DNA from: Okamejei kenojei
Taxonomy: Eukaryota
Length of the DNA: 64,000 bases
Direction of reading: 5' to 3'
Assembly (NCBI GenBank): GCA_035221665.1
Contig: CM069135.1
Coordinates: 23,808,001-23,872,000 of the forward strand
Part shown: positions 22,664 to 61,119 of the stretch, in pieces
Layout of the letters: each line of letters opens with the position of its first letter
How positions within the stretch are numbered: the first letter of the stretch is position 1
Translations under genes and position numbers: made by a program
Notes under the pieces: model-generated
Told to the model about the DNA's origin: nothing
What the model saw: only the letters and a program-made list of their open reading frames with translations
Database searches by the model: none

Positions 22664-22752
22664 AAGAAGGGTCTCGACCCGAAATGTCGCCTATCTCCTT
22701 CGCTCCTTAGATGCTGCTGCACCCGCTGAGTTTCTCCAGCCTTTTGTGTACC
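22664..22752 (+). repeat. Penelope terminal-repeat copy, near-identical to 45692-45770
   Basis: aagaagggtctcgacccgaaatgtcgcctatctccttcgctccttagatgctgctgcacccgctgagtttctccagcc. Confidence 0.7.
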
Positions 22753-27603: not shown

Positions 27604-28319
27604 AACTTCTCTCCACAGATCCTCCCAGACCCCATGAGTTCTTCCAACAGTTTTTTTTAAATGCCAGGACTGGTTGGTGTATTTGAAATCTGTAGAGGTT
27701 GCAGATCGGGAAAATTGTGGATGTGATTGTAAGGATAGGTAATTTGGGCTGGACCAGATACAGAGTGCAAAATAAATGAGCCTCAGAAGTATGAATTCCT
27801 CTTTGTTTACAATTATCTGAGCATATTGGAATAAGTTGGTAATTTTACATTGTTGGAGGTGTTATTGGGAAAACTGATGAGCCATGGTCTTCAGAGGAAT
27901 GAACTCTCCAACTGGCAGTGTGTACTTCCGGCTTTACCTTTGAATTGATAAAGGTGCTTTATTAATTGAAGTTTTTGTTGAGATGGAGCATACGATTCTA
28001 AAGACTTTCAAGGAGAGTTAAATGCAAAAATTCTCAGATATGCAGAATCAGCAACATGATACAAATACAAATTGCCTTTATTGTCATTCAAAGAGACAGA
28101 GATTTGAACGAAATTTCGTTCCCTGCAGTCAAAACAATAAAATAAACATAACACACAATTAGCACAGTTTCTCACACACATCCATCACAGTGAATCTCTA
28201 AACACCTCCTCACCGTGATGGACGGCAAAAGACTTATCTCTTCCCTGTTCTTTATTCTTCTCCCGCGTCGAGGCGATTGAAGCTCCTGATGTTAAAGCCC
28301 CCGGCGGGGGTTGGTAAAT

Positions 28320-31013: not shown

Positions 31014-31222
31014 TTACTTGTATGAGGTTGTAGTGTTTAATAGCCGAATGGCTGTAGGGAAGAAGCTGTTCCTGAACCTGGAAGTTACAGTTTTCAGGCT
31101 CTTGTACCTTCTTCCCGATGGCAGGGGTGAAATGAGTGTGTGGCCAGGGTGATGTGGGTTTCTGATTATGCTGGCTGCCTTTTTAAGGCAGTGATTCTGG
31201 TAAATCCCTGCCATGGTGGGGA
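31014..31222 (-). mobile_element. Rex1/Babar-like LINE fragment
   Basis: KKAASIIRNPHHPGHTLISPLPSGRRYKSLKTVTSRFRNSFFPTAIRLLN. Confidence 0.72.
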
Positions 31223-31582
31223 GCATCTCTGGATAGAAGGAATTGGTGACGTTTTGGGTCGAGACCCTTCTTCAGATTATTTCAGACCAGATTTCAAATC
31301 GACAAACCTTCCTAGCATAAAATACTCCATCATGTTGTGTCTATCTTCAGAGAAAACCACCTACACTGCGGCACCCTTTCATTAAAGCATTGAGCTGTAT
31401 CTAGCATTTAATTTAGTTTATTGTCACGTGTGCTGAGGTACAGTGAAAAGCTTGTGTTGCGTGCTAAACGGTCAACAGAAAGACAATACATGATTACAAT
31501 CGAGACATCCACAGTGTACAGATACATGATAAAGGGAATAGTGTTTAAGAAAGAACTGCAGATGCTGGAAAATCGAAGGTAC

Positions 31583-31928
31583 TCCCTTAATAAGATAACG
31601 GGAGACTCCTTCCACCCCTGCAACGGACTGTTCCAGCTGCTACGGTCAGGCAAATGCCTCCGTTGCCATGCTGTGAGAACGGAGAGGATGAGAAGGAGTT
31701 TCTTCCCAGAGGCCATTCGGACTGTAAACTCCTATCTCACCAGGTACTAACTTTACTAACTTTACTGTACCACAATACCGCCCACAATATTTAATATGAA
31801 AAAGAACATGTGATTCTGTTTGTAGTTGTTGGTTGTTTGTTTTTTTGCACAAAGTCCGCAGGCATTGCCACTTTTCATTTCACTGCACATCCCGTATGTG
31901 TATGTGACGAATAAACTTGACTTGACTT
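31583..31928 (+). mobile_element. Rex-like LINE 3' end with GGTAC target duplication
   Basis: DSFHPCNGLFQLLRSGK...RMRRSFFPEAIR, then aataaa(cttga)n. GGTAC at 31578-31582 and 31929-31933. Confidence 0.75.
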
Positions 31929-32199
31929 GGTACACAAAAATGCTGGAGAAACTCAGCGGGTGCAGCAGCATCGATGGAGCGAAGGAAATAGACAACGTTT
32001 CGGGGTGAAACGTTGTCTATTCTTCAGTATGTATAGTGCAAGATAAAGCCAGTACAATCCGATCACCGATAGTCTCCAATGAGGTAGATAGTCGTTCAGG
32101 ACTGCTCTCTAGATGGGGTAGGATGGTTAGCACAGATTTAACCAGCTACGTATTGGATAAATGTGCATCAAGACTTGAAGCAGAGTTTGGGATTGTTGG

Positions 32200-33063: not shown

Positions 33064-35528
33064 AAGTGGTGATAGTTACTTTTGATAGTTACTCTAGCTA
33101 CCTGCTTCCTCTACCATTTGAAGCAGTGCATTCCATATCACAATTGGGTAATTCCATTTCTACTGCTACTAATTTGCCACTTACCTTAAGTTTGTATTCT
33201 CTTTATTTAAAATTATCTTGCTGTAACTATCATACTCTTTGATAACCATCTGTAATTATACACACTTCTATTACTTCTCCCCTTCATTTTGTCTTAAGTG
33301 TGAACTATCTCAGCTGCCCTACTGAACATGTAACCAAAGCTCTATGGTACTGAACCAATTTGGGCTGACTAATGTAATGTTAATCTTAAACCTTTTTTAA
33401 TTTATTTTCCAAATCTTTCCAATAAACATCTCAAGCAAGCATTTGTGCGGACTTTTCCCTCTGTTTCACATTGTCTGTTTAGTATTAAATAGTTTGTAAC
33501 ATTTTCTTAATTTCGATTTCTATTTCTCTCTTTTGACGCCCAGTTTGGTGTTAATCCACACCTTGCTAAATGGTATAAATGGGAATTTCAGATTCCTTGC
33601 GGTATTTTTTAAAACATTAAAGAAGTAAGGAACTGCAGATGTCAGTGTACAAAAAAAAAGACAAAGTGCTGGAGTAACTCAGCGGGTCAGGCAGCATCTC
33701 TGAGGAACATGGATAGGTAATGTTTCAGGTTGGGATCCTTCAGTCTGAGTATAATGCAAGTCAAGATCTTGATATTACTGAATGAGAGAAAACATAAAAA
33801 AGACCAGCTATGAGAATGAACTTTGTTGCCTGGGTAATTTAGAGAGCAATAGGGAAACATATTTTATGCTGCTGCACCCGCTGAGTTTCTCCAGCTTTTT
33901 GTGTACCCTCGATTCTCCAGCATCTGCAGTTCCTTCTTTAAAAAAAAAAAATATATATTTTATGTCATTGTGTTTTCGTGTGAATTTTCATTATATTCAG
34001 AATATTGCTCGAGTGAAGCTGATGAAACACATTTGTCTGGATAACATATAAAACAAAGTTCTTCACTGTATTTCAGTGTATGTGACTATGCTAAACCAAT
34101 TCCCTAAGCCCCTTCTTAAGCCTTTATTTACCATTAGTGGAGGACCTGATGAAGTGCTGGACAAAATGTGTGGAAATGAATCATATTACGAATTAATATT
34201 TATTCATTGTGTCGAGGCCTCCCTGTCAGAACATTCATTCATAATTGCCCTACTTAAAAGACATTCGAACATACAACAGTGCGGCACAGGAACACTCATT
34301 TTGGCCCACTATACCTATGCGCGCGCCATGATGCTAATTTAAATTGCACATCTGTTTATACATTGTTTATATCCCTCTATTCCCCACCTATTTACATTTG
34401 TCCATATGCTTCCCAAATGTCATTGTATCTGCTTCCATCACTTCCCATGGAAGAGTGCTCAAGCACTAGAATTTGGGAGGTTCTGTTGGAGTAGCTTGGA
34501 CTGCAACTTAGGTGCACTTAGTAGCTGCAGTATATACTATCTGCAAAGCGCTAGTGGTGAGGGGGGGGGGAGCGTTTAGGTTAGTGGATGTGGTACCGAT
34601 CAAGTGGGGTGCTTTGTCTTGATGGCATGATGTTGGAGCTGCACTCAATCACACAGTGGGGAATATTCTATCACACTCCTTACTTGTGGCTTGGAGGTAG
34701 TGGAAAGGGTTTAAGGTGTTAGGAATGAATCACTCGTTGGATATGTAGTGTCTAGTCAATCAGATACGACATTCTGATGAGTTCATGGTCACCATCTCAT
34801 ACTAGATCAAAATTCTCCATTCAATAATAATATATAAGGAATAATAATATACAATAGGAACAGGAATATGCTGTTTAAAATCTCACTCATCCAACCTTTA
34901 TGGCTGTACTCTGACATAAACTCCACGTAACTTCCTTTGTCCTACATCCCTTAACATCTTAATGTTTCATCTCCAATTTATAGTCAACAATTCACTTAAC
35001 ATCAATTACCGCAGTAACATTTCTATGATAAAATGCTACAAATAACGAGTTTTCTGGGATCAAACTTTTTTTGCTGGTCAAATATGGCCCTAGGTTGAAT
35101 CCCCTTGACCTCTTTCATTTAAGTTTATCTTGGAGAGAAGATGCAGGATGATAGTGTGAAACACAGATAACCTATTGACATATTTCCAAAGAGGAGGAAC
35201 TTTGTGAGAAAAATGAAGAATTTACTGGCATTTAAGAATCATTTATTAATCATAATAGGGTGCTTTGACTTCCAAATTTTCCATTATTAACCCTTTAGCT
35301 CAAATAGTTACTATATGATATGGTGAATCTTGTCTTGTTTTCATCATGGTAACACGTGTTTCTTTTAAATTCCAGATTACTGGTTTTTGTGATAACAGAT
35401 GAGCGGAACAATACTTGTGACTAATATTCTTGGATATCTAACACACATTGGCCTTATGTAACCTGCTAAAATTTAAGTTCATGTAAATGTAAATGAGCCA
35501 AGACTGCTTGGTTTTATCTGACGAGTTC

Positions 35529-35885
35529 ATGAAGAGGGGGGATAAGCTTGATGGACATAGACAAATGAGACCAAAAACATTCCCAGCCAGCAACTTTTCT
35601 GGGAGTAGCCGGCAGATGTTGCAAGAAATCCGGGAGAGTCTCAGACATTTGCATAAACCATCAGGAGATGTTGGAAGCACTGATCAAAATATGATGAAAT
35701 TGAGCACGGAAGATTCACGACAACAAGGACGGAATGCTCTTAAATTTGTGACTCACCAAAAAGCCTTGCAAGAGATCCGAAATTCTTTGCTGCCATTTTC
35801 AAATGAGTACAGTTCATCAGTTCGTGGATCTGCCGATGTAAACAAGCAGATGTTGCAGGATTTGGTGACTGCAGGATTTGATGAG
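35529..35885 (+). CDS. LATS1: LATS1 (Hippo pathway Ser/Thr kinase), first coding exon
   Basis: MKRGDKLDGHRQMRPKTFPASNFSGSSRQMLQEIRESLR..., similar to human MKRSEKPEGYRQMRPKTFPASN. Acceptor at 35374-35375, donor gtgaga. Confidence 0.95.
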
Positions 35886-38119
35886 GTGAGAGATATTTAA
35901 ATGAAACGTGGAGTTAGTCCTCTGATGCTTTGCAAACTGTATTACTATTATATATGGAAGCATTTTCCATTTTAAGCTGATATTATTTGGACAACCTGAT
36001 GGAAAATAATAGTCTGTTAACAATGCATGCAGTATTAACATACAAATTGAAAATATTTTGTTGCAGATAATCAATTATGAATCTTGCTGCTGGATTTCAC
36101 CTCTTGTTTTTAAGATAACATCTTGAATTTGTTGCCCTGTTGTAAAGGATTGGCTGGATTTGCAATTATTATTTATTATTAAATCGTTGAAAACATTAAC
36201 AACGTTTCTGACGGGCAATTAGGGCAGCAACAATTTTAAACCGTTCGATCTCATTTCCATATTTAGTAAATTATTTTTTAGACATTTTTTTAAAAATCGC
36301 ATTTTGTTTTACTCTTCTGCTTTTTAACATTCTCACTAAATTCAGTCTTTCCTTTTTTTAAAGACCTTTCTTTACCTGATTTGACTTTCACTCTCCATCA
36401 GCGGTGTATGGTCTTACTCTTCACTAGATTCCTAGATGCCCCATTGCCTGTTATTAACTCGCATTTTGCAGTGTGTTAAGCTGCAAAAAAATTCTGATTA
36501 TTTGAAGGAACTATTTAGACAAAATGGGCAAATGTGTTTTCAAGCAAAATTTGACCTCATAATAGATTTAGTTTTACTATTGTCACGTGTATCGCGATAC
36601 AGTGAAAAGCTTTTTTTATGCCATCCAAACAAATCCGATCTTCTTGCGTATGGCGTGCACAGCCTAAAGTTGTAGTTCAACTTGTTCTATTTCACCTTGT
36701 TTGTGCACGTCGGGTTGATTGCATTAGTCAAAACAGGGTGGACCTCGTGAAGGTTGCAATCCGATAATACTATGCATAAATAAATCAAGTCAACCTCAAG
36801 TACAGTAAGTAGAGCAAAGGGGGAGATACAGAGTGCAGAATATAGTTCTCAGCTTTGTAGCACATCACTTCCATTGGAATTAGTCCAATGTTCACAATGG
36901 GGTAGAAGTGAATTGGATAGACCTTAATTTATAGTCGGACCATTCTGATGCCTGATATCAGAGGGGAAGAAGTGGATCCTGAGTCTGGTGGTGTGCGCTT
37001 TCAAGATTCTTCGGGAGTGGGAGAAGAAGGAATGAAACGAGTCCTATTTACGATTTATAAATGCAGAGTTCAGCATGTGATAATCTGACGATGTATTAGC
37101 ATTAAGTAAACATCATTAATTGGCAATGGTATTTCTGGAAATAATTGAACTCTTATAGAAACCTTTCCGTGCCAGTCATGTTTCTGTTGATGTCAGATTT
37201 AAAGAAAAGCTGTGTACATTTTCCTATCTTAATTCCTATCTCAAGGGTCTGTTGGAACTCGAAGAAGTATTAAACAAAGTAAACTGAGTAAGCTTACTCT
37301 TAAATAACTTTCTCACATGGCCCTTCTTGACAAAGCGAAAATACCTTAATCCTGATTCAATTTTCTTGAATTTCGTTTCGAGTTCTGGGCCAGCACTGTG
37401 GAAATAATTTGGAGAGTAAGTGAAAGAAATTTACTAAAATTATGTCTGGTTTAGAGAGGTTTGCCTACATGTATAGACTGGAGAAGCTGAGGCTATTCTC
37501 TTTAGAGCAGACGTTTCAAAGATAAATAAATGTATTTAAAATTATGAAGGGTGCAGACAGATGCCGTTGTCATTGAAAGAACCAAGGGACATAGAATTAA
37601 AGTAATTGTCATAAAAAGGACAGAAAATATGGTTTTTGCAACCGGTAATTGAATTGTAGCATTAGGAAGGGAGCTGATAATTATTTGAGAGAAAAGAAGT
37701 GGCAACATTTTAGGAAGAGGGCAAAGGAGTGCAACTAGTAGACTGCCAGCTGGTATAGGCTCAACTGGCCATATGGTTTCCTTCCTAACTTGGCAGTTAG
37801 TGACATGTTTTCTGCTTACATAGGTGATTTAATGGTGTGGCTTGGTGAAATCCAGGTCTTAGAAAAGTAAAGTAAAAGTAGACTTTGCAATACTGCTTTT
37901 ATGAGGAGTTTGCAATGATACTTGTGCAAATTAAATTGATATGAATCCAGAGGCCTATGAAGGACTGCAGTCTCCAGGTGCTAAATAAGGATATTTAAGG
38001 AGTACCATTGGGTGCGTGTTTGGAAACTGGTAAACACTGCATAACACAAAATATAAGTTGTGCAATTTGAAGTGAAGAGAATGTCTATCATGAGCCGATA
38101 AATTTGTTTGTTCATATTT

Positions 38120-38692
38120 TACATGGGCATCAGCCAATCATCCTTGTCCCACCTGCAATTGGTCCAAAACGCCACAGCGAGACTCCTGACGGGCACCCGA
38201 AAAAGGGACCACATCACCCCGATTCTGGCCTCTCTCCACTGGCTCCCTGTGCGGTTCTGAATCAATTTCAAGCTCCTTCTTTATGTATACAAAGCCCCTA
38301 ACGGGCTTGTCCCCACCTACATCAAAAATCTGCTTACCCACCACACGACCTCCAGATCCCTCAGATCGGCCGACTTGGGGTTACTGACCATCCCGCGGTC
38401 TAGGCATAAGCTCAGGGGCGACCGCGCTTTTGTAGTTGTAGCTCCTAGATTATGGAACAGTATTCCTCTTCCCATCAGAACTGCCCTCCCCATTTTAAGT
38501 CTAGACTTAAAACTTATTTCTACTCTCAAGCTTTTCTTGAAGTCCTCTGAGGGAGCGCTGTGTGTATGTATCTCTGTATGTATTGTTGATCTATGTACCA
38601 CTGTTTGTAGCACGTTAGTACCTGCACCAATGTAAAGCACTTTGGTCAACGAGAGTTGTTTTTAAATGTGCTATAGAGATAAAATTGACTTG
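38120..38692 (+). mobile_element. L2-clade LINE 3' end
   Basis: HITPILASLHWLPV...RSLRSAD...GDRAFVVVAPRLWNSIP is typical of the L2 ORF2 C-terminus; tail ttgacttga. Confidence 0.8.
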
Positions 38693-41506
38693 ATATTTAT
38701 TATCTAATGTTGCAGTAGATTTTTGAATCACTTCCTAAACAGAGTGTTGACGCTGCTGGAGAGTTCAGAGGAATCTTAAAGACCCTTTGTGATTGTTGAG
38801 CTAGACAACATTGTTAGTTCAAAAATGATAATACTTAATAGAACATGGCTACCAATTACTTTCAAGTACAGGGATAGCATTCATCTTTGAGCTTTTTATA
38901 CCATTCAGTTAGAAGGAAACCTGTATCTTAATCCCTTTTACCTGGATTTAATGCTATTGCTGTTTCAGTCTTGAAAAAAAAAATTTCCGTTGAAAGAATG
39001 CTTCCAGTTTCCCTCCCAAATGGCCTAATTCTTAAGTTGTGCCCATTTTCAGAATCCTCAGCGGTGCTCTTCATTTTTTCTATCTTTTATCATTTTCCCA
39101 TCCGCAAAATTTGTAAGATTTTTTTCATTTATTTTTCCAGTGTTTCTTTAATTTCTGAATAAGCCAAGGACTTTTGCTGCAACACATTTTTTAAGGATTA
39201 TGTCTAATCTGTAACCTCAAGTTTCCATGGACTCATTTATTTCATTTCCCAGGCTATTTTTCCTTTCCTATCTTATTGATATAGTTATTTCTAGCATGTA
39301 ATTTTTTCCCCCAAATATTTTTTCTTTAATAATTGTTACTTTCAATACTTAATATTCATCCCCAGCAAAGATATTTTTGTATAGATATCCCAGAAACTAG
39401 TCTTCCTTTTCCCCTCAACCTGTAATAGCAGATTCCACACTTTCGCTACTTTATGAGTACTGAAGGTTTTATGAATAATTTTTGATTTCTTTATAATCAT
39501 GACAGTCACTAGTATTTCTCATCTCTGCACAAAGAAACACTTACTCTGTCTCGACTATGAAAAACTTACATGCTAACTTTAAAGAACTCTACCAGCCAGC
39601 CTCGGCTTTCTTTTTTCAATCCTTTGTATTTATGGCTCCAATCTTATGGATCGTTTTTGCACTTTCTCCAGTGGCTCTATGTCCTAGTTCCACTAATGGT
39701 GCAGAACCAAATTTCTGCAGAAACCAATTTTTTTTTTGGAACCATTTGAGGTTCAAATGTATTGATTTGTATTGTAGAGAGTTTTACACTGAAAGAGTGA
39801 TCTTATCAATAATCTATTGCTAGGCAGTAGAACTGATTGTTGTTGATTTAAAAGGTACTAACTTTGAAAGTACCTTCACATAAAATTCCCCTTTTTGATA
39901 ATCTGCATTGACATTCCTAAGTGGTGACAGAATTGGGAAGTTGGAATGTCCTATATTTTAAAAAATCATCTTCCAGAAACGTTTTCTTATTTCCACAAAT
40001 AATGGTTGCCACACAACCTCAGATTCCTTGGTGGAAAATAAGTGGTTCCGAAATTTGTTTCTGGGTTTCTCATCGGGCGAAATAGGCTGGATTGAGCAAC
40101 CCAAGTTGGTCAAAGTGACAGTTGCAGTGTTCAGAACCAGAGCAAGTGAGACTCAGTTCTGGGAAGAGAAAATATTCACATTTGAAAAAGATTCTCTGGA
40201 AAGTTTTTTAAGTTGCAAGAGACCTGGGAATGATGCTAAATTCAGCACAGACTTTGTATAGTCAAAACCAGAGCTGCAGTTAACTAATGAAAAAAACCCC
40301 TAAATTTACATAAGATTGCATGATCTTTGGAATGTATCAAAACACTTTCAGCATTCAATAGGATCTTGGGCATTATGTGGACAGAAATGTAAGGAATCAA
40401 ATTAAATTCTGAACTGCATTGCCAAATTGGTGGCATATACAGTTGTTCCTCGATTTGCAAAAATGATGTGTTCCTGGAAAACATGTCATCAAGAGAGTAT
40501 ATCTTATTTTATCAGTGTATTTCAATGGGCAGAGAATAGTATGTTACATAGTATAGCAAAAAAAATTGTGAATCAGAACACACACCTCCAAATATGCTAT
40601 TACAAAAGAATTGTAAATGAAACATTCATAACGTAGTTATACCAGTATCACACAACTGAGTTTATCAGATTTAATTCATTAGGCTGTTCAGGTTATAACT
40701 TACATTTATGTGTCCACTTCTGGTCACTGAAGCAGAAGAGAGAGATTTGAGAGCTCGAAAAAAATGCAGAGAAGGGCAGCGAAGTTGATCCATATTCCAA
40801 CAATTGGTTATGTGAAAAAGAAACATCAGCTTATATGAAGTATCTTTGTATATAGCTAATTTATTTGCATAGCATACTGAATGGAATAAAGAGGATTCAT
40901 CTTGAGCAATATTTCAAAGGCAAGAGGATCCAGATATAAGCTGGTAAAAGTTCCAGGCTGAACTCGAGAAGCAATTTTTAAACCGTGATATTACAAGGAA
41001 TGCTGTCAGGATAAGGAAGTGGCAAAAACATAAGGCATGAATGGTATTTTAGATTTTTATGAATGAGTAGGGTGGGTGCTCTTTTAATTTCAAAGCAAAG
41101 ATGATATATGTAAACTAATAGAGCTAGATAGGCATTGTAATTGGTTGTGATCTTCTGATAGTTTCACTTATAATGCACAAATAACAATTTTTGTAGCAAA
41201 ATGTGGTCATGTTGCTTTGGAGATACTGTGAGATTCTCTTTTGTTCCAATATATAATAAAGGATGGGAAGGCCAATTCCACTTGTGTATAAATGAAAACA
41301 AAATTATGCCTTGAGTGAGACCCCGAGTTGAATGTGACAGTCACTTTTGTGTACACATACTTATTATTTTTTCCGTGGAGCCTGCTGCTAAATGTGTTAA
41401 ATGTTAAAATAACTGATGTGAAAAATTGTGATTTTATGATTGTAGAAAATATGATGCTGCTTAAGATGAAGTATGTTTTTTAATATCTGCATTTGATCCT
41501 TTGTAG

Positions 41507-41657
41507 GACATGGTAGTGCGAGCTCTCAAGCAGACCAACAGTCGTAGTATAGAGGCTGCTATTGAATACATCAGTAAGATGAGTTACCAGGATACCAGGC
41601 GAGAGCAGATGGTCGCTGCAGCTGCAAGACCAGTGAATGCAAGCATGAAGGCATCAG
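41507..41657 (+). CDS. LATS1: LATS1 exon (UBA domain part)
   Basis: DMVVRALKQTNSRSIEAAIEYISKMSYQDTRREQMVAAAARPVNASMKAS. tag acceptor, gtatgc donor, 151 nt. Confidence 0.95.
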
Positions 41658-42291
41658 GTATGCATCGCTGAAGTCTTAGATGACCCCTAAGTGCTAAGAT
41701 ATCATTCAAGTCTCATTCTATTGTTCACAGTCTGGGCTGTTGTTTTTGTTGCAGCAACATAATCCATTTATATGTGTCTAGTTTTGGGTTAATTTAAGTG
41801 GTTGCTCTGATTAGGACTTGTTAAAATTTCTTTTCTGTTGTAGGGATATTTAATGCATTCCTGTTTTTTTAAAACAAAATCTTATTTAATCTCGCAGGCT
41901 ATTGTAGGAATGGTGCGTTTGTTTGGCTACAGATGTACGGATCACTGCAGCTTTGAGCAAATTGTCAGCTGTTCACTGTAGTTTACATAGTGCTACATAG
42001 TGTGCACAACAGCTAGTTATTTTTTAATCATTTAATATATTTGTGATATTCCTGTGCTTCAACTGCACATATACTACATGAACATCATATTATCAGAGAC
42101 CTGGAAAACGTATTATGAAGAGCAATCAATCTAGTTTAAAGAATGTTACTAGTATTCAGCTACTGAATCTGCTGGAACAGTCAAAGATATTTTCTGTCTT
42201 TTCAGTTAAATTGAGAAATAATAACAATTATTGCTATATCTAAATGACTGAAAGTACTATAGTTTTATGTTTCTGTCATATTTCCTAACAG

Positions 42292-43874
42292 GATCCAATG
42301 CCGTTCAGCAAACAGTAAATAGGAGACCAAGTTGGAAGGGTTCAAAAGAATCGTTGGTTGCACAGCGCCATGGTCCATCGTTGATGGAGGGCATGGGATA
42401 TCGTGCAGAAAGCCCTATCTCTCAGTTAGAAATGGGTCGGCCACTGTCTTCAAGTTCGGGAATGACTGCGTATACTCAGAATCATCCTGGGAATGGACAG
42501 GGGTCTTTGGGAGCAGTGAACTCTCAGAGAGCAAATCCCGCACCACTTCCAGTGAGAAGTGTAACTCCACCTCCACCTCCCCCTAGAGGGCAGACTCCTC
42601 CCCCACGTGGCACCACTCCTCCCCCAGCCTCATGGGAGGGGAGCCAGCAACCAAAACGGTTCTCTGGAAACATGGAGTACATGATCACGCGAATATCTCC
42701 AGTGCCGCAAGGAGCCTGGCAGGACGGATTCCCACCCTCCAACCATGGTGCTGCCTCTATGATGAATCCTCCACCCCAAGGCCAGCGAGGAATAAGTCCC
42801 ATTCCACTTGGTAGACAACCTATAATTATGCAAAACACCACCTCTACTAAATACAATTACCCTACAGGCAGAACGGGACATCAGAATGGATCTGCACAGG
42901 CAGATGGACCCATGGGTGGACACTTTGTGCCTCATCAAAATGTGATGGGTGGGAATCCAGTGAGTCGTCAGCCACCTCCTTACCCTCATTCTCAGGCTAG
43001 TCGGCAAAGCCCAAGTGCCTTACAAATGCAAGCAGGGGGGGCTGCTGCTTCCACCTACAGCAGTAACTTGAATGGGAATGTTTCGCAGTCTGTCATGGTG
43101 CCAAACAGAAACAGCCAGAACCTGGATCTTTATAACATCAGCGTGGCTGGGATGGCATCTTCTTGGCCACAGCCACCTCCAACTCAGCCCCAGTCTGTGG
43201 CTTGCACTCCAGAGACGACTATCTGGCATCCTCCACAAAATATGAATGCACCTGTAAGATCCAATTCGTTCAATAATCACCTTTTATCCAGCCGACAGGC
43301 TCATTCCAACTCACAACAATCTGCTACCACTGTTACTGCCATTACGCCTGCACCCATTCTGCAGCCTGTGAAAAGCACTCGTGTACAGAAACCTGAACTG
43401 CAGACTGCACTTGCCCCCACTCACCCTCCCTGGATGCAGCAGGCTGCTCCTGTTCCCGAGGTTTCTAGTTTGGGTGAAGCTCCAAGTTATCAGCCTCCAC
43501 CTCCACCATATCCAAAGCACTTGCTTCAGCAGAATCAGCCTGCACCACCTTATGATTCCATAGCTAAAGTCAGCAATGAGCAGACAGCAAAACCTTCCAC
43601 TTTATTTTCGCATAGTTTAGAAGAGGATGAGCCTGAGAAGGTCATTGAATATGGGGAACGGCTTGATGCTACAGAGAAGGAAAAGAAACAGATTACAACA
43701 TCGCCTGTCCCTGTGCGAAAAAACAAAAAGGATGAGGAGCGTAGAGAGTCACAAGTTCAGCTTTACTCCTCGCAGGCATTCAAATTCTTCATGGAACAAC
43801 ATGTGGAGAATGTGCTCAAGTCTCATCAGCAGAGGTTGCATCGCAAAAAACAACTCGAGAACGAAATGTCGAGG
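42292..43874 (+). CDS. LATS1: LATS1 large exon (proline stretch, PPxY motifs)
   Basis: Contains SWKGSKESL, RSVTPPPPPPRGQTPPPRGTTPPP, QPPPYP, PPPPYPKHLL and AFKFFMEQHVENVLKSHQQR. cag acceptor, gtaagc donor, 1583 nt. Confidence 0.97.
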
Positions 43875-45825
43875 GTAAGCAATGTACTCTTTCTGATGTC
43901 AGCATAAAACTTATTTCATTTGTTGCCAATGTCCTGGCAGGACATTGATTTGTAGCCAATGTCCTGGCAACCAACAGGGTCAATGGTGAAGCAGCTGTGT
44001 TGCTTACTCATTCATGTTATTTTTTTTCCAGCTTTTGTAAGGCATTGACCCAATCGCAAACATTGACCGATAAAAGCTAATTAGTCCCAGGTCTGAGAAA
44101 CTAGTAAGAAACTAAAATGTTTATACATATATGTTCCCCAGCAGAGATCTGAGGAGAGAATTCTAGCTGTCACCTTCTGATGGGTGGATCAATTGATTTG
44201 GTCTATGGTGGATCTAAACATTCCCCAGATACTGCTTGAAGAAGAACAGTGGATTTTATTCCTGGTGTTATGATATGAAATTGTAACGGGTTATCTGATT
44301 GCTATATAATTATTGCTTGTGGAATCTGATTATAATATTTTCTACAACAGTGACTACAAATTAATTTTGTGGCTGTAATATGCTTTGGGATATATCCTGA
44401 TGTTTTGTAAAATGCTTTGTAAACGTAGTTCATTCTTTTTATCATTTTATTTCACACGAAGGTGCAAGGGAGATAAAACTTGCCAGAGTATTAAATATAC
44501 ATGTTTTTCTTTTTGAAGTACATGACACACAAGGAAGGATATCTGTAACTATTAATCCATTCCTGTCTTCCTTTAATGGATTTGAACTCTAATGTGGAAT
44601 GTTAAACATTTCTCACTTATGTGATGAAACAATGGGGCTAACCGGAAAAGCTGTTTTTGCAGGAACTGGATCTCTGCATTCACAGTCACAGTTATTCACT
44701 ACCATGAGTCAGTTGTCGGGCTAGTAAACTGGAGATCTAGATTCTCACGTCAGTGATACAAATTCAGATTACACCATGGCTGCAGGGATATATAAATTGA
44801 GTTAATTAAATGATCTGAAATTATTTTTAAAAATCAAGCTATAGCAACATGATCCTGAAACTACAAAACTATTGTGAAACAAATAACATTTCATTAATAT
44901 CCTTCAAAGCGAAAATGTGCTTCTCCTACCTGTCCAGCCTTTATCTGACTCCAGACTGTAAAGAATGTACTTGACATTTGTTTTTCCTCTGAAGATAATG
45001 TTGTATTAAAACTACTATATTGGAACATAATGCAGACAAACCTGAATTGATCACCCTGCATCTTGGTGATCAATTGGTCCTGGATTTATTGCTCCCTGCA
45101 AACCTCAAAAATACATCAGCTGGTTTGACCCACCAGAGTTGTTGGCACAGTGACATATAGGTGGGCAGGACCGACCCTGGTAGTCTTCAAAATTGTAGTG
45201 TCAAAGAAGAGACCCGTTTCCTCCACCTCATGAACCAGTACTCCTCCAGGTTGAATGATGGTTGTGAGAAACACTGAGACTAGTAAGGATGTAAGTGGGA
45301 GAGAGATTTCAGTGCCCATCACAATGTCTCATGTCAGAGATTAGATAGTGCTTTGTTCTATCCATCTCTCCCCCACCTTCTCTGCAACTTAAAATTAAGT
45401 TGTTTTCTCTCTTCTCCAGTTTTGACAAAGGGTCTTCAACCGAAAGTATTAGCTTTTTCTCTTTCCACAGTTGCTGTCTGGCCTGCTGGTGTTTTCCAAG
45501 ATTATGTGTGGGGCCATAGGAAAACAACTTAAGCCTATATCCACTTTGCTATAAGATCAGAATGTATTTGCTTTCACAAGAAAAGAATCATTAATTTAGT
45601 TAAAGGAAATCAGGCAAATTATCTGGGATGTAATGAATTCTCAACAGTGCTACTCTGTTATGCACAGACTGAAAAAATGGTGGCAGTAAGTTCGACCCGA
45701 AACGTCGCCTATCTCCTTCGCTCCTTAGATGCTGCTGCACCCGCTGAGTTTCTCCAGCCTTTTGTGTACCCTCCTTAGTAACCTAAAAAGGATATACTTA
45801 TAAAAAGACAAACCTGCAAGGCGAG

Positions 45826-45920
45826 AACACAAAAAGCTAGAGTAACTCAGTGGGACAGGCAGCATCTCTGGAGAGAAGGAATGGGTGAAGTTTCAGGTCG
45901 AGACCCTTCTTCAGACTGAG
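45826..45920 (-). repeat. Penelope terminal-repeat copy with hammerhead-like core
   Basis: Minus strand 45914-45887 reads CTGAAGA AGGGTCTCGACCT GAAACTTC, followed by acccattccttctctccagagatgctgcctgtcccactgagttactc. Confidence 0.7.
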
Positions 45921-47126
45921 GAGCCAAGAGCAATGGATATTTTTTTCCCCGGGAAGTGTCAGCATAAACATGACCCTTCAAATTACAAAATCATGTGCTG
46001 TGAGGTTCATTGCAGTTAGCCTGAGCCTGAGAAGCAGGAGTAAGTCATCTAGCTCTTTGTGCCTACTCCACCATTCAATAAGACCAGGTCTGATCTTTTA
46101 TTTTAGTGCTAATTTCTTGAAGCATCTTGATATCCCTCGATTCCCTTAATATCTAAGAATTTATGAATCTCTGTCTTGATTACTCAATTATTCAGCTACC
46201 ATAACCCTCTGGGATAGAAAGTTACAAGAGGTCATTTGCCTGTGCTCATCTTATTCCTGAATGGTTGTCCCCTTATTTTAGTGATTCCTGGTTCTAGACA
46301 CCCTCTCCACAGGAAACATTCTGCATCTACCCTTTCAAATCTCACAAGAATATATGCTTCCTAGATGTACTATTTCTGTAAATACATATTGTTACTGGGT
46401 CTCCATTCTTATTCCATGTTCTGTGAAGTTTATTTTATTGGGTGGAGGATGTTGATTGACTATTTGGTATTTCCTGCCAAATCAAACGAAAATAATTGCA
46501 AAAAAACTTTGTCTGACCATAGTTAATAGTCCCATCTCTGGTTTATGCTCTAAAAGAGAACTTCTCAAGAAATGTAATCGTTAAGAAGTGTAGTTACATC
46601 ATTGTAAGAATTGCAGTTGTTCATGTACAAACAGAAAGCTTCCCCAGACAGCAGAGGGATTGTGATGTGTTGCGGGAAAGTTCCTGTAGATTAACATATG
46701 GACAAATATAAACTGTAAAAATAAGGACAAAATTAATGTTAAATTATGACTGAAATACATACATACACACTTCATCGTGTTACCACCCACACCCAATCTT
46801 ACTTGACTTAAAAGACTATTCTCAGTCGTGGCTTGATGTTTATAACACAGCACATTGTTAATCAGGAGATTTATTATTGCTTGTATGACTAGAAACACTC
46901 AGAACCTACAGAAGATCTCAGACCTGGAAAATTAACTTTTGTTTCTCATTCCACAAATGCTGAGTATTTACACCATTTCTGTTTTCATTACAGATCTACA
47001 TTTTTCTTGGTACATTTTCATTTAATATTGCTTTTCTGTCCTCATTATTCTCTGCAATCAGTGATTGCAACCAAAAGGTTTTGTTGTTAAAAAAAAAATG
47101 TCTGCCTTTGCTTTATTCAATTATAG

Positions 47127-47709
47127 GTTGGATTGTCAAAAGATGCCCAAGACCAGATGCGCAAGATGTTGTGCCAGAAAGAGTCTAATTATATTCGCTT
47201 AAAAAGGGCGAAGATGGATAAGTCTATGTTTGTAAAGATCAAGACCTTGGGGATAGGTGCGTTTGGAGAAGTCTGTCTAGCTCGGAAAGTAGATACCAAT
47301 GCGTTGTATGCCATGAAGACGCTGAGGAAGAAAGATGTGTTGCTGCGAAATCAAGTTGCTCATGTGAAAGCTGAGCGGGACATCTTGGCAGAAGCTGACA
47401 ATGAGTGGGTGGTTCGACTCTACTATTCATTCCAGGATCGAGACAACCTTTACTTTGTGATGGACTACATTCCAGGAGGAGACATGATGAGCCTCCTTAT
47501 AAGAATGGGCATTTTCCCAGAACCTTTAGCACAATTCTACATTGCTGAACTGACCTGTGCTGTGGAAAGTGTCCACAAAATGGGCTTCATTCACAGGGAC
47601 ATTAAGCCAGATAACATCCTGATTGATCGAGATGGCCACATAAAACTGACTGACTTTGGGCTGTGCACAGGTTTTCGATGGACCCATGATTCCAAATATT
47701 ACCAAAGCG
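47127..47709 (+). CDS. LATS1: LATS1 exon (MOB-binding region and kinase N-lobe)
   Basis: Contains LGIGAFGEV, HRDIKPDN and DFGLCTGFRWTHDSKYYQS. tag acceptor, gtaagt donor, 583 nt. Confidence 0.97.
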
Positions 47710-50700
47710 GTAAGTGATATTTATTTACGTGTTTAGGAAATTCTGCTGCAATTAGGAAAAGATAATCACTGATCTATTCAATCTGATTATAACTTGAAAA
47801 AACATGACAGTTGGAAATTTGTTAATCTAGATGACAAGTTACAGAATCTCTACCTCTTCATCACCAACAGTAGGCATTATAATGGAATTTTGCATAGTAG
47901 TAGAAATAGGTCAAACCAAAGTCTTCAGGAGAGATTCTTAATCTTGCCAGATTGAGTCATCTTTACGTGGGCACGAAGAATAATAGTATTCAATCAATGA
48001 CTTTCCCTTACCCCATTGTAATTAACTGGCTGCATGCCCAGATACAGTGAGATTAATGAATCCAGCAGTAATGGCCCAGTATGTGATCATTATAGGTGAC
48101 ACCCAGGAATATTGAAATAATGTCCAATGCTTTGATGGTGACATTTATTCCAATACTAACACTGTAATGATTCCCAGCATTTTTAGAATATACATAGTAG
48201 AGTTTATAATTTCTTATTAATAACCCCATTTGGCTATGAAAAACCAACAAATGAGTACAGAAATTTTTCTTTGTAACTTGTGTACATCTCCCCTTTTTTG
48301 TCTTTATCATGTACCTCCACTTTCGAGCTAATCTCCAATCTTCCTCCCTGTCCATTACTCGGTCATTTATCATCCTCCACAGGTCACAGCTAGAATCTTG
48401 CATGTTGTTTTGGTTGCAGAGTGTAGAGCGGATTTACTAGAATAATGCCTGGGGTGGAATGTTTTAAGTTATGAAGAGGGACTGGATTGGCTAGGTTTGT
48501 TTTACTTGGAGTAGAGGAGGCTGAGGGGGACCTGATGGAGGTGTGAAAATTTATGTGAGGTACAGACAAAAGTTGTTAAGTCTAAGTAGCTCTTTTGTGA
48601 CCAGCAGGTCCAGGGGTAATTTCACAATTCTCTCTTCATTTCCTACTCCGCTGCTCATCTTTTCTCCTCTACTGCTGGGAGGTAGTGCAGAGATTGGGGA
48701 ATGAGACTGGTGAAGCGTATAACCTTTGGGTGCTAGGCAGAGTAGTTATGTTGTTAAATGCAATATTCTCAGTGTTTAGTACTCAAGTCTATATGATCCC
48801 AAAATGAGACGTTTACGAAAAAATGGAACTGTGCACAAACTGTTCTGTTTAACTACTTCATGCTGAATTTATGCAGAACATGAGGCTCCTCCCACCTGAT
48901 TCATTTTAATCAAGGTAACCTAATCCTTGCCTTTGTTTCTTTAGCTACCCTCTAAATATTTAATAAGTAAATGTCTCAACTGCTATCCTTCATCCCTCCT
49001 CAATCCAACTGTGACCTACTGGTCCCTGTCTCGCCCCTTTACCAACCATCTTCCCTCTCCACTTTCAGTCATGGTGCAGGGTCTCGACCTAAAACGCGGC
49101 TGGTTTCTTTTCCCCGAACTGTTCCTTTAGCAGTTTGTTTTTTGCTTTAGATTCCGGAATCTGCAGTCTTGTATGAAATTGTGTAACATACATTTTTAAT
49201 ATGGAAACCTTTGTAGAGTACTTTATCTTCTGACCCATCATCGAGCAGTGCTTCATAATGGTGATCAAATGTTCCACAATTATCCAAAAGATTGCATGTA
49301 TCATGGTGTTATTGTCTTGGTGTTTGAAGACCGGTGACGAGAGCATGCTTCATCTTGTTGTCAACTTTATCTTTTCAACAGTGTTAGCCTGTTGGGTTTC
49401 TTTTAAATAGTTCTCGCAGGGGAAACGTGGGATTTTATTATGATAGTCATATACCAGATAATCAACCTCATTTTTATTCATAAACATTTAAGAATTAGAC
49501 CAATAGGCTTCCAAAAGGGATTTTATAAGTTGGTCAGAACTGGGCAGCATCAAATCTATCAATGTGTTGAATATCAAGGTATGGTGATTGACTAATGTTA
49601 CAATGCAAATCGGTTACGACAAGTGGAATCTTTGGCGAACAATATATAGGTGTATCAGTTCTGGAGTTTATAGAAACTGGAGTTAAGCACACGGGTCTCT
49701 GCCAGTGGGGGGGGAGTTGTCCTGAATAAAGCACCATGTCTGCGCTTTGCATACCTGTTGGGACAGAATGGATCACTGAGTTTGGATTGAACTGGAAAAG
49801 AATGAGTGGAGAGAATATAGAATGAGTCATGTGACTTGACATTGATCACTTGTCATAAACTGTGGCTCCTCTGACTAAGATGTAAAAGGAGTCTGAAGTC
49901 CTGAAAGTTAGTTTCTTTTTACAAATTTGTCTCTATAGCTGCTATGAGTCACTTCATTCTGAAAGCAGTAAATCATGTTCTTGCTGTCAAAAGTTCGAAC
50001 AACCACTAGTATAATCCAGGTGCCCATCATAAAAATGAGTTTATATATGAATCAACTGTTCCAACTTTAATTAGCTATAGTAAAATGCGTTGTACTGCAG
50101 TGGGAGCATTCACAGAAAATGCAATATTTTCTAAAGCTTAGAATTGGCTATCAGGTATGGTGTAATAGTTGCATGGGCACAATAGCATTCATACTTGCCT
50201 GCCAACTGGTTATAGGAACATTCCTAAGCTGTAATTAGGGACCACTGACCTTTTTTCTCCATTTGATTCTTGTTCTTTGGACACAGATCAACATATTGCA
50301 CCATCTTATTTTTTGGTAAAATTAACAGACAAGACAAGCCTCTCTTTCTGCATCTCCAGACATCTGTAGATGTCCTCCAGCAAACTGTAGGTTTCTCTGG
50401 AAAAGCTTTGACTTGCAATTTCTTTAAAGAAAAGCAAGAAATTGCAGTAGCTCAACTTCTTCATCACTACCTTTGATGTACTTATCCCAGCACATTTTCT
50501 GTTTCAATCTAGGAATTATTGTTATGACCTGAAACGTCGTCTGACCATTTGCCTCCATCAATGTTACCTCTCGCTGAGTTCCTCCTAATTTGTTTTTTTT
50601 GCTTATAGATGATAGTGTGATCACTTTCGATTTGAAAGAAAAGCTCCGTTTCCAGATCAAGGATGAGTGCTTAGTAATCATGTTAGAGTCATGCAGCATG

Positions 50701-50902
50701 GAAACAGGCCCTTCGGCCCAACTCACCCAAGGATGGGTATTCCCACTAGCTGTATGACTGAATGTCATAGATCATTCAGTATCTCTGAAATGGTGGAGTC
50801 AAAAGGGGGGTAATTTAGTGCTAGAATGTATTAGATCTCTTGTTCATTGCTGTCCTTGCAGATCCTTGTCTGATTTTTAAAGGGTTTCCTTAATATATCC
50901 AG

Positions 50903-51085
50903 GTGACCATCCTCGGCAGGACAGTATGGATTTCAGTAATGAATGGGGTGATCCCAAGAGCTGTAAGTGTGCAGAGAGACTAAAACCCCTGGAGCGAAGA
51001 GCAGCTCGGCAACATCAGCGGTGCTTGGCACATTCCTTGGTGGGCACACCAAATTACATTGCACCAGAAGTATTGCTCCGTACAG
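50903..51085 (+). CDS. LATS1: LATS1 exon (activation segment)
   Basis: GDHPRQDSMDFSNEWGD...RCLAHSLVGTPNYIAPEVLLRT; 183 nt. Confidence 0.96.
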
Positions 51086-51170
51086 GTAAAGTTAATAAGT
51101 TCTCTAAGTAAGCTTTGATTGCATTCATAGAGTAAGAATTTTATTTTCCTCACTATAGTAACCCTTTTAC

Positions 51171-52180
51171 TAGGTATGTTACAAAATTTACCTTTAGTGG
51201 CGCTGCAGTTCTGCCACTGCCCGTGTGCGCAACTTTGGCGCCTTTGAGAGGGGGGCGAGTTTAAAATGCCGTTTACTCCAGACCATTCAAATCGATTAAT
51301 CTGAGGGGATTTAGTTGCTGAAGAGAAATCGCTCCGACATTTGTTTTATGGGGATATTTTTAAACTGCGCTGAATAATTTAATTGCTAGAGTGAATTAAA
51401 AATCATCTTCTAAAGCCGTGAACGCCGACAACGGGACGGATCTTACGTAGGGGACAAAAGAAGGTACTCAGTTTATTTTTTACGTAAAAATGTGCTTCTT
51501 AGGAAGCCTTTAGTCAAAATTTCATGTTGCGAAAAAGTGACTTAAAAAATATACGAACCGGCAGTATTTTCCTGTCGACTGGGGGTTAAATTCACCGCAA
51601 ACCGCAACGTTCCAAACCATCGCGTTCCACAAAAACCCACTCGCGTTGATTTAAATGGCCATCAATTTACGGGAATTACACACTAAATTTCTTCAATTTG
51701 GCCTATAAATTCATGACAATGAGATTTAAAAATCATGATATATTGTGAATTATTGTGTGAATGTTATTTGGACACTTAGGCTTTTTAAAAATGTTAACCT
51801 TTTCTTAAGAAATGGATAGATGTTTAGATCTAGTAATTGAATTTTGTAATTAGCTACAATTAGGTAACTAACTAATTATATGCTTTAATTTCATGTCATC
51901 CAAGTAAGATTGTTTCATATTTGTTTCAGAATGCTTCAATCTATAATAACTGAAAATGTCATTCAGTTCTCTTAATTTTTAAGAAGGTTATGGGCTTTTG
52001 ACTGTCCTTGATCACAGCTTTTGTGTTACGTCAATGGAAAAGCAAGGGAACAAGATGCTAATTTCTGAGTATGAAAATGGCCATAGCTTTTTAATACTGA
52101 AGATATGAAAGTGAATTAGGTGTCAAATTGAACTTTTTATGCTTTATCTGATGGGATAAATTAGAAGGCTTGATTTTTTA
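51171..52180 (-). mobile_element. Second copy of the TIR element, inverted, one end truncated
   Basis: Starts TAGGTATGTTACAAAA. The body is the reverse complement of 20900-21935 (e.g. tagatctagtaattgaattttgtaattagctacaatt). Confidence 0.8.
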
Positions 52181-52396
52181 TGTTCAAATGCATGTTGTGA
52201 TATTTATAACTGAATAAAAATAAGATGTTATCAGTCTCTTAGCTTCCCAAGGTATCTCCATTATCCCTGCCAGTTTTGGTGTTTTGTTTGCAGCAATATT
52301 GCAGGTGAAGCTTGTACTGTTTTTCCAAGACTATGATTTGTGGCAAGGCTCATATTACTTTGAATTGGTTCCTTTCAGTTTTAGTTTGTTTCATTA

Positions 52397-53365
52397 GACA
52401 ATAGGTGCAGGAGTAGGCCATTCGAGCCAGCACTGACATTCAATGTGATCATGGCCGATCATCCCCATTCATGCCTTCTCCCCATATCCCCTGACTCCGC
52501 TATCTTTAAGAGCCCTATCTAGCTTGCTCTTGAATACAAGGGCTTTCATACAAAATCCCTTGTATTCCCTTAAGTAGCATTAGGTTTCATGTATATCAAA
52601 TGTTTCTGTTTTCTTCATGTCTCACATCCCTCCGTTGCATTTCCTTAACTGGCAAAACCTATAGAAGTAAATTAGATCTGCATCATGTGCAACTGAAATA
52701 ACAGGCTGAATATTTTAAATCCAAAAACTGAAAGATTGTTCATGTTTTCAATCATAGTTTATTTAGAATGGCCAACAAAATCTCTAAACAGTATAAACTA
52801 GGAATTAAGCCAAAGGAGTTCAGAATCAAGTGTTATAACTTAAAATTGTAACTAGTCTTTTAAGATGTGATTGTCAAAGATATTCTTAACCTCAAAAACA
52901 AAACCAGATTTTATGGGTCGGTAATGGAACTCTCATAAGGATAGGAGCAGAATTAGGCCATTTGGCCATTCAGGTCTACTCCGCCATTCAATCATGTCTG
53001 AACTATCTCTCCCTCTTAAGACCATTCTCCTGTTTTCTCCCCTTGACCCCTGACACCTATACTAATCAAGAATCCACCTATATCTGCCTTGAAAATATTA
53101 ATTGACGGCTTCCACAACTTTCTGTGGCAAAGAATTCCACAGATTCACCACCCTCTGACGAAACAAATTCCTCATCTCCTTCCTAACGAAAGGTCCTTTA
53201 ATTCTGAGGCGATGCCCTAGACTCTCCCACTGGTAGAAATATTCTCTCCACATCCACTCTATGCAAGCTTTTCACTATTCGGTATGTTTCAAAGTGGTTC
53301 CCCCTCATCCTTCTAAACTCCAGTGAGTCCAGGCCCAGTGCCTCCAAACGCTTAGCATATGTTAT
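52397..53365 (-). mobile_element. Two CR1 3' fragments (about 52397-52515 and 52935-53365) in a LATS1 intron
   Basis: ggccatt...cattcaat..catg and gaattccacagattcaccacc motifs shared with the other CR1 tails. Confidence 0.7.
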
Positions 53366-53391
53366 GAATAATAAATCTTGGTAACTGTTAA

Positions 53392-53613
<222 letters not shown>

Positions 53614-53826
53614 TAGAATAAATGTCAAAAATAATTGCAGGTGCTGGAATGGGAGGGCATTCAATGGATTTCTGAGCCATTTTAAAATTGCCATGATCTA
53701 AGTGAATGGTTGCATAGGCTGAACAGTGTTGAATATCTTTGTCCATTAGTAAAATGTATTTAAATGCAGGTTAATTTTTTTGGAATGTTAGTCTTATGGT
53801 TTTTATTATTGTCTATTGTCACAAAG

Positions 53827-54342
53827 GTCATAAATTGGCAGACAACACTTCACATCCCACAGCAGGCTAAACTTAGCCCAGAGGCATCTGATCTCATTAT
53901 TAAGCTCTGTCGAGGCCCTGAAGACAGGCTTGGAATGAACGGCACAGATGAAATAAAAGCCCATCCGTTTTTCAGGCAAATCAATTTCTCCAATGACATC
54001 CGGCATCAGTTAGCTCCGTACATTCCAAAGATAACTCACCCAACAGATACGTCCAATTTTGATCCTGTGGATCCTGACAAATTGTGGAGTGAAGATAATG
54101 ATGGAGAAAATGTTAATGACACGCTCAATGGCTGGTATCAGAATGGAAAGCATCCAGAACATGCCTTCTACGAATTTACATTCCGGAGATTTTTTGATGA
54201 TAATGGCTACCCTTACAGCTACCCTAAACCATTGCAGTGTGATTATCATAGTCTGGAAACGCATGAGCATCAGACAGAAAGTAACAACGAAAATGCTGCA
54301 TCAGCGAAGCGGAGCCAGAATCGAGAACTGGTCTATGTATGA
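53827..54342 (+). CDS. LATS1: LATS1 terminal exon (AGC C-tail, hydrophobic motif)
   Basis: VINWQTTLHIP...HAFYEFTFRRFFDDNG...RELVYV*. Exons sum to 3480 nt, giving 1159 aa. Confidence 0.96.
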   Translation, partial: VINWQTTLHIPQQAKLSPEASDLIIKLCRGPEDRLGMNGTDEIKAHPFFRQINFSNDIRHQLAPYIPKITHPTDTSNFDPVDPDKLWSEDNDGENVNDTLNGWYQNGKHPEHAFYEFTFRRFFDDNGYPYSYPKPLQCDYHSLETHEHQTESNNENAASAKRSQNRELVYV

Positions 54343-60814: not shown

Positions 60815-61119
60815 ATAGAAACAAAGGATTGCAGATATGCGTTGAATTTGGAGCAAATCAGTGGGTCAGGCAGCATCTGTGGAGGGAAATAAAAAACAAC
60901 ACATGGAAAGCATGGGGATTTTGGCAGGAAATGGCACCTGGTAGGTGGATCCAGGTTTAGAGAGGTGGATTAGTGGATGTGGTCAATCAGGAAGAGATTG
61001 AAGATAACAGAGACTGGGATGTGATAACAGAGACTGGGAGGTAATCAGGCTCTGCAGATGATGGAAAAGAAAGGTGGAGTAAGGAAAGAAAGGGAGGTAC
61101 AATGGGCAGATGAGAGCAT

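Follow-up and report, generated by a model that had tools for sequence, protein, structure and literature searches.

Dispersed repeats around the skate LATS1 gene are 3' ends of a Penelope-like element with a minimal hammerhead motif

The repeat that recurs on both strands of the window (the whole 64-kb stretch of skate DNA analyzed here) is, by its physical linkage to coding sequence elsewhere in the same genome, the 3' end (pLTR/tail) of an EN+ Penelope-like element (PLE). In our preferred reading, to which we assign a probability of roughly 0.88, each copy is a 5'-truncated 3' end (a pseudo-LTR, or pLTR, with an optional ~32-bp tail) of a Neptune/Nematis-type element carrying a minimal type I hammerhead motif, and the copies in the window are damaged and likely inert by-products of insertion. 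Penelope pLTR stubs with the published minimal hammerhead motif are an expected PLE feature, and they have no detectable effect on host genes: The comparison of sense with antisense copies proposed in an earlier note on this DNA gives a negative answer.

A profile refined on genomic copies identifies 22 copies in the window, against 0 when the sequence is reversed, and a profile built from the window alone gives the same totals (22 and 0). All ten of the cores cited in the earlier note are present on the strands given there, at or no more than 1–2 nt from their reported positions, but the repeat is shorter than the 130–170 bp claimed for it, most window stubs measuring about 40–130 bp. The consensus proposed there is real, as its 30-nt version occurs exactly 39,727 times genome-wide in a pattern search (20,036 and 19,691 times by strand; control 0); if the gene spans discussed below are representative of the genome, extrapolation gives a total of about 1.2–1.3 million copies. 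As the note had also said, no single window copy matches the whole consensus, and the perfect 30-mer occurs 0 times in the window.

To place the copies relative to host genes we mapped coding exons. Seven coding exons of LATS1 lie on the plus strand at 35493..54339, and the first four coding exons of SHPRH lie on the minus strand at 2637..7295, with the gene running on to the left of the window (90% identity to thorny skate SHPRH). The right side of the window is likely, from an exon match to PPIL4 just outside it (in locus L096), the end of PPIL4 on the minus strand. The earlier placement of the copies inside gene introns holds for the 9 of 22 that fall in the mapped coding spans of SHPRH, LATS1, and PPIL4, and the other 13 are located in the stretch that separates the first coding exon of SHPRH from that of LATS1. 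Six of the nine are sense and three antisense, and none of the six sense copies carries an intact motif. The copies are as follows:

2044..2173, plus strand: stub with core boxes kept and palindrome broken (GAAACATC); antisense in an SHPRH intron
4853..4940, minus strand: weak remnant with no core; sense in an SHPRH intron (E 9.6e-5)
5052..5172, plus strand: stub with tail, GAAA box broken; antisense in an SHPRH intron
8063..8136, minus strand: decayed stub
8887..8944, minus strand: decayed stub, 5' box absent
10756..10872, plus strand: decayed stub
20321..20409, plus strand: stub with 5'-box deletion and G12>A
22664..22756, plus strand: young-family stub beginning inside CUGANGA; 97.8% identical to L082
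26776..26882, minus strand: decayed stub
27606..27655, plus strand: short body remnant with no core
31220..31278, minus strand: stub with the best match to the consensus in the window; one mismatch, the catalytic G12>A
31323..31362, plus strand: short remnant with no core (E 7e-4)
31547..31584, minus strand: tail-only remnant
31929..32028, minus strand: stub with broken stem II
33627..33749, minus strand: stub with tail and 5'-box deletion
33866..33943, plus strand: young-family 3' piece with tail and without the hammerhead part; 100% identical to L082 over 78 nt
45422..45510, plus strand: old decayed stub, core lost; sense in LATS1
45691..45773, plus strand: young-family stub; sense in LATS1; 98.8% identical to L082
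45826..45921, minus strand: the focal stub, from an older subfamily of the PLE; lies antisense within LATS1 intron 43878-47126 (nhmmer E 6.8e-32)
45887..45914, minus strand: hammerhead-motif remnant within the focal stub (CUGAAGA, bulged A, 4-bp stem II, GAAA, UC)
49065..49167, plus strand: decayed stub, both core boxes broken; sense in LATS1
50522..50585, plus strand: decayed stub, 5' box absent; sense in LATS1
60849..60889, minus strand: body remnant with no core; likely in a PPIL4 intron, sense

None of the 22 copies passes a minimal-hammerhead descriptor, and an Rfam scan of the window returns no hammerhead. The closest approach is the stub at 31220..31278, whose core at 31248-31275 (minus strand) departs from the consensus only at the catalytic G12. 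The young stub at 45691..45773 is 5'-truncated inside stem II and is without CUGANGA. A tblastn comparison of the PLE protein with the window yields no match, and thus the window holds no part of the open reading frame.

The parent element was found through the genome at large. Among 30 genomic loci retrieved with the focal copy, one (L023) has a GIY-YIG frame directly upstream of the repeat. Searching the genome with this endonuclease gave 161,659 first-look candidates, the best 150 of which were scored, and in 28 of 30 loci matching this older endonuclease the motif stands 70–361 bp downstream on the same strand. Two loci, L081:2161-5751 (minus strand) and L082:4279-7869 (plus strand), contain uninterrupted 1197-codon frames encoding a reverse transcriptase (RT) and a GIY-YIG endonuclease (EN); the two copies are 98.1% identical, with a unit of 3955 bp, and their frames are flanked by direct repeats (495 and 898 nt, 99.8% identical) that each end in the motif. 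Direct repeats of this kind, the pLTRs, were present in all four loci compared with themselves (99.4–99.8% identical, 495–1846 nt), the two further loci being tandem units with frameshifts. The three young-family stubs in the window are 97.8, 98.8, and 100% identical to the end of the intact L082 element, and the Penelope origin suggested in the earlier note is borne out by these matches together with the linkage at the endonuclease loci and the motif-terminated L081 and L082 copies. The focal stub, at 84% identity to the pLTR end of the young element, is by sequence a member of an older subfamily.

Pfam places RVT_1 (E 5e-6) and GIY-YIG (E 0.004) on the 1197-codon frame, both under the curated cut-off; the frame also has a YIDD motif in the RT and a CX4CX2C linker ahead of the endonuclease (proteins P0001 and P0002), and its 770 homologues, up to 54% identical over the RT-EN part, show the same Pfam set. 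It is the linker that points to a Neptune/Nematis-type element. In the portion of PMC8557442 available to us, EN+ PLEs of these two types share with the skate element the single ORF of RT plus C-terminal GIY-YIG, a CX2-5CxxC linker, partial-tandem pLTRs, strong 5' truncation, an inverted 5' copy, and a 30–40-bp tail. Peculiar to the skate frame by comparison is a proline-rich stretch of ~300 aa, which lengthens it to 1197 codons, the top homologues being mostly 660–1000 aa. The two intact, 98%-identical frames, and the many endonuclease matches with identical scores among the 150 scored, suggest that the family was recently active. We note in passing that L082 has a conserved ATG at 4203, after a pyrimidine tract and AG and out of frame with the main ORF, whose first in-frame ATG is at 4315; where the main ORF starts, AAG/GTATGC resembles a splice donor. 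An upstream ORF or splice signals are possible explanations.

In the intact element the motif reads CUGAAGA, a bulged A, GGGU-CUCG-ACCC, GAAA, a palindromic C-G, and UC. As the earlier note proposed, this is the anatomy of a minimal type I hammerhead: Shared with the metazoan PLE hammerheads described in PMC4209133 (in the part of that paper available to us, here and below) are CUGANGA, the extra base between positions 9 and 10.1, the G10.1-C11.1 pair, the palindromic 15.2/16.2 positions, the absence of a helix III loop, and the location in a pLTR. Differences are a helix II of 4–5 bp in the skate element and a helix I of 2 bp, compared with 4–5 bp in Schistosoma; a 2-bp helix I is reported there just for a D. 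virilis variant. The short stem I noted earlier (about 2 bp) is thus a property even of the intact young element, and at genomic scale the third helix I pair is A-C in 202 of 360 core-spanning copies; only 1 of the 360 combines an intact core with a helix I of at least 3 bp, and the stable helix I of most published cases (4–6 bp) is absent. The CUGANGA, GAAA, and UH letters of the core are retained in the intact element and in 123 of 360 copies, and the G10.1-C11.1 closure with the 15.2/16.2 palindrome in L082 and 52 of 360, but in no window copy.

Beyond this anatomy, the L082 monomer gives no hammerhead fold (z +0.66), and Rfam hammerhead models, to which the earlier note looked for confirmation, match neither the window nor the intact element's pLTR; the designation "ribozyme" therefore rests on motif and position. 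For covariation in stem II, a second check named there, the copies within this genome show no two-sided changes beyond CpG decay: The stem changes observed are one-sided (stem II U-A to U-G in 39 copies; stem I in 86) or reflect CpG decay. A link to recognized hammerheads comes from 16 metagenome loci whose RT-EN is 34–37% identical to that of the skate element, half of which end within ~150 nt of the match. Three of the 16 have a same-strand Rfam Hammerhead_1 match ~400 nt beyond the endonuclease; because these three are close relatives from a single data set, they do not count as independent cases:

L241:2644-2688, L244:2669-2713, and L245:2879-2923: Rfam-positive type I hammerheads of distant PLE relatives, all from one metagenome

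These have a 6-nt palindromic helix III insert and a helix I of 7–8 bp, with the same core as the skate motif and a different stem II. They support homology of the skate motif to PLE hammerheads by position and core, its activity being presumed; by PMC4209133, minimal hammerheads in PLE pLTRs show low activity even as dimers. Within the gene spans examined below, the motif of one subfamily has UUCG as its loop, U-G pairing at one position of stem II, and a cut site of GUU rather than GUC.

The focal copy illustrates what decay does to this motif. Its core reads ...GACCT GAAACTTC, in which C11.1>U and G16.2>U have turned the ACGU palindrome into ACUU and so broken it; stem II is closed by G-U instead of G-C, and C-U stands where the palindrome has C-G. 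The ACGU palindrome ascribed to the repeat in the earlier note therefore holds for the intact element and not for the focal copy. The CUGANGA, GAAA, and UH letters survive and the would-be cut falls between 45887 and 45886, next to a 2-bp stem I; the G10.1-C11.1 closure of helix II and the 15.2/16.2 palindrome are lost, and the monomer gives no hammerhead fold (z +1.28). Modeling predicts that the focal copy and the convergent stub at 45691..45773 would form a long hairpin in LATS1 pre-mRNA (−112 kcal/mol, z −11).

A potential consequence raised in the earlier note is that sense-oriented intronic copies cut host pre-mRNA. To assess this possibility at scale, we examined 1.4 Mb drawn from the spans of 22 genes of the myosin and spectrin families (L101-L240), taking the strand from collinear exon hits; the profile finds 666 copies there and none in the reversed control. 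Orientation is balanced (336 sense vs 330 antisense; 202 vs 196 without mirror pairs), as are core-spanning copies retaining the core letters (66 sense vs 57 antisense among the 123). Intact cores, which the note expected to be depleted in the sense orientation, show no depletion: core, stem II, palindrome, and 2-bp stem I are all kept in 44 of 360 copies, 20 sense vs 24 antisense. Preferential conservation of the core, likewise looked for, is not seen, because the core decays like the rest, with mismatches to the majority at 7.2% of non-CpG core positions (230/3195), 7.5% of body positions (733/9803), and 23.6% of CpG positions. That dead copies decay neutrally is compatible with a ribozyme in the active element, and so only the inference of a host effect falls.

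Cutting often enough to matter to the host is therefore, in our estimation, very unlikely, even granting that perfect motifs number 39,727 genome-wide and that perfect matches in the gene spans are skewed toward the antisense strand (30-mers, 6 sense vs 16 antisense, p=0.052; young 40-mers, 2 vs 11). Those skews are post hoc, and a pre-set replicate was too small to decide on them (1 vs 1 and 1 vs 0); the copies with one mismatch (13 sense vs 11 antisense) and two mismatches (28 vs 17) run in the reverse direction, and perfect motifs in the gene spans (22) are close to the 20.2 expected from the genome mean. We read the 6 vs 16 skew as noise. No sense/antisense difference appears in any of five age bins, and among young-family copies selected by the body alone, those with an intact motif number 5 of 10 in sense orientation and 8 of 15 in antisense. 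The replicate set itself, of 204 kb (120 kb new plus flanking genes), holds 50 sense and 53 antisense copies; in this small sample intact copies number 1 vs 2 and perfect motifs 1 vs 1. Dimers in cis appear rare, none being seen, since both motifs are intact in 0 of 48 pairs of same-strand neighbors within 300 bp, and the mirror pairs, which hold 268 of the 666 copies, would fold as hairpins. In the window itself 0 of 22 copies are intact and the focal copy is antisense with a broken palindrome; the window copies are likely harmless to host genes as well as damaged. Separately, 134 head-to-head pairs in 1.4 Mb, or about one per 10 kb, lead one to expect long pre-mRNA hairpins in either orientation, which are possible substrates for A-to-I editing or double-stranded RNA pathways.

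How such stubs would arise is suggested by where copies end. Among the 666 copies, profile ends peak at columns 107–111 and 133–137, ~30 columns apart, and among young copies some stop at the short end and others run on through the ~32-bp tail; these two peaks and the 134 head-to-head pairs match the inverted copy and 30–40-bp tail of PLEs in the accessible part of PMC8557442. Ends at the cleavage site are rare, with 5 of 666 copies starting at columns 37–39 and 3 of 666 ending at columns 36–38. We envisage that the element's GIY-YIG endonuclease would nick target DNA and that, by analogy to an anole PLE studied in vitro, reverse transcription would begin inside the RNA, at a point ~95 or 127 nt to the 3' side of the hammerhead core, and mostly halt before leaving the pLTR, in many cases just a few bases upstream of the core; now and then a strand switch would yield two copies placed head to head as mirror images. 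On tandem transcripts of the intact element the hammerhead would have weak activity, dependent on dimer formation or on assistance from protein, and it likely has no role in setting stub ends; once inserted, stubs would decay neutrally.

The 5' ends fall into several classes. Of the 360 core-spanning copies, 71 reach known upstream PLE sequence and 63 are fold-backs, 16 of these centered on the base just before C3; in the 226 that are neither, conservation fades from −3 and is near background by −6. With about 5 copy starts per column at columns 11–60, starts look concentrated just 5' of the core, an approximate figure given that the library of upstream sequence is incomplete. Target-site duplications were found in 22 of the 360 copies, with no fixed offset.

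One could instead regard the short copies as a non-autonomous, retrozyme- or SINE-like family replicating through ribozyme-cut RNA. Short copies far outnumber long ones, as the 71 of 360 reaching upstream PLE sequence attest, and animal non-LTR retrozymes, by the available part of bioRxiv 10.64898/2026.07.22.740005, likewise consist of short pLTR-derived repeats with type I hammerheads. However, retrozymes form tandem arrays of intact units, whereas the skate copies are dispersed solo or mirror-image stubs with no tandem array of intact motifs (the 0 of 48 neighbor pairs above); copy ends do not cluster at the cleavage site, 5' ends are variable, and the stubs are near-identical to the end of the autonomous element. 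We consider this explanation very unlikely, and return to stubs as truncated insertion products of the autonomous PLE.

The fall-off of conservation just upstream of the core admits another explanation, which we hold to be unlikely overall: that the motif is kept mainly as a core promoter (Inr, MTE/Bridge, DPE), the hammerhead being weak or vestigial and the stubs copies of RNA started there. In the proposed layout, MTE/Bridge coincides with stem II and DPE with the GUC, the Inr A+1 lying three bases 5' of the core. Scored with consensus and spacing from Table 1 of PMC4581360 (as far as that source was available), L082 has Inr 7/7, CGANC 5/5 at +18..22, MTE 9/12, and DPE 5/6 at +28..33; the combination of CGANC with a DPE of at least 5 at the published spacing is found at 0 of 15,142 and 4 of 15,271 control Inr sites, and within the element at 1 of 62, which is the site three bases before the core. 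RNA started at −3 would leave just 3 nt for helix I, the 226 copies with neither upstream sequence nor fold-back would fit such a start, and an internal promoter with Inr and DPE is described for the Penelope element of D. virilis (PMC2377424, in the part available). The motif-spacing test is post hoc, however, and of 152 matches that start with AGT, 116 share a C at −4, so that starts do not fall on a single base; our collection of upstream sequence is incomplete, the same fall-off also fits a 3' splice site at CAG or microhomology within TCAG-T-CTGA at fold-backs, and all hammerhead-specific features are kept. No GT..AG joints into the CAG 5' of the core, an arrangement also found in D. virilis, occurred among the joints listed (15 of 100; 15 of 61), which come from relatives' contigs, several of them probably DNA. 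Loose ends at L082 4149-4151 were left out of the truncation evidence because other subfamilies differ upstream of CAGT. A cap-derived G at −4 was considered and is not claimed: The excess in one set (16/36, p=0.028), with 5/8 (p=0.042) and 5/12 (p=0.27) in others, is confounded by fold-back junctions.

In its fullest form, which we entertain only as a doubtful proposal from sequence patterns, hammerhead and Pol II core promoter would be the same 35 bases, with transcription starting three bases before the core and reverse transcription starting ~100–130 nt downstream and running off the capped end, to leave stubs combining ribozyme and promoter, about a million in number and amounting to several percent of the genome, with many of them forming mirror-image intronic hairpins, from a family that is young and intact. 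Such an overlap, if real, would account both for a helix I of only 2 bp and for the surplus of short stubs, and would be relevant to the still open question of PLE hammerhead function; a literature search for Penelope hammerheads with initiator or core promoter found nothing.

The preferred reading, of 5'-truncated PLE ends, agrees with the behavior of known elements. In the part of PMC11167929 available to us, the tail ends of the anole Poseidon element PAc are internal RT start sites, its hammerhead is protein-assisted, and cleavage is not needed for insertion; PAc shares with the skate element two 3' end points bounding the tail and the lack of any sign that the ribozyme sets copy ends. Unlike PAc, whose ORF starts at stem II and whose RT starts lie 111–118 nt inside the ORF, the skate element has both its end points and its hammerhead upstream of the first in-frame ATG (L082 4315). 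The metazoan PLE copies of PMC4209133 are likewise mostly solo and truncated, with some close opposite-strand pairs, and the motif load in the skate is very high by comparison, at 39,727 perfect copies of one 30-mer vs ~4,000 motifs in coelacanth and ~9,000 in Xenopus; the available part of that paper makes no mention of cartilaginous fish. Literature listings for Penelope with hammerhead, skate, shark, or chondrichthyan contain no study of the skate element, which may be included in the supplements of PMC4209133 or of the bioRxiv preprint (one chondrichthyan sampled). An intact young vertebrate element of putative Neptune type has modest value as material for biochemistry, because the PLE proteins studied in the papers cited, as far as these were available, are of Penelope/Poseidon type.

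Several other features of the region deserve mention. The genes follow the order SHPRH (minus), LATS1 (plus), PPIL4 (minus), with 7295-35493 between the mapped coding exons of the first two and the PPIL4 side from 59296 onward; the neighbors of human LATS1 are NUP43 and KATNA1, so that local gene order probably differs here. SHPRH and LATS1 stand head to head, and their first coding exons flank a G-rich minisatellite (12058-12685, 23–25-bp unit); the GC-rich sequence near it may be the SHPRH/LATS1 promoter region. A LINE fragment at 28863-30215 (plus strand), presumably CR1-like, retains an RT frame of 450 codons (RVT_1 E 4.6e-28), and its 3' end forms a 294-nt inverted repeat with its neighbor (27311-27604 / 30011-30304). 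Two ~1-kb segments 30 kb apart (20943-21937 and 51174-52138), 74–93% complementary, belong to a different dispersed repeat, present here in both orientations. Immediately beyond the right end of the window, L096 ~540-2240 (plus strand) holds a 5'-truncated young PLE whose RT/EN pieces are frameshifted and whose motif looks intact; it lies antisense to PPIL4, in one of that gene's introns. Broken protease/RT-like frames at L096:6039-6506 and L084:9149-9805 (both plus strand) resemble LTR-retrotransposon pol.
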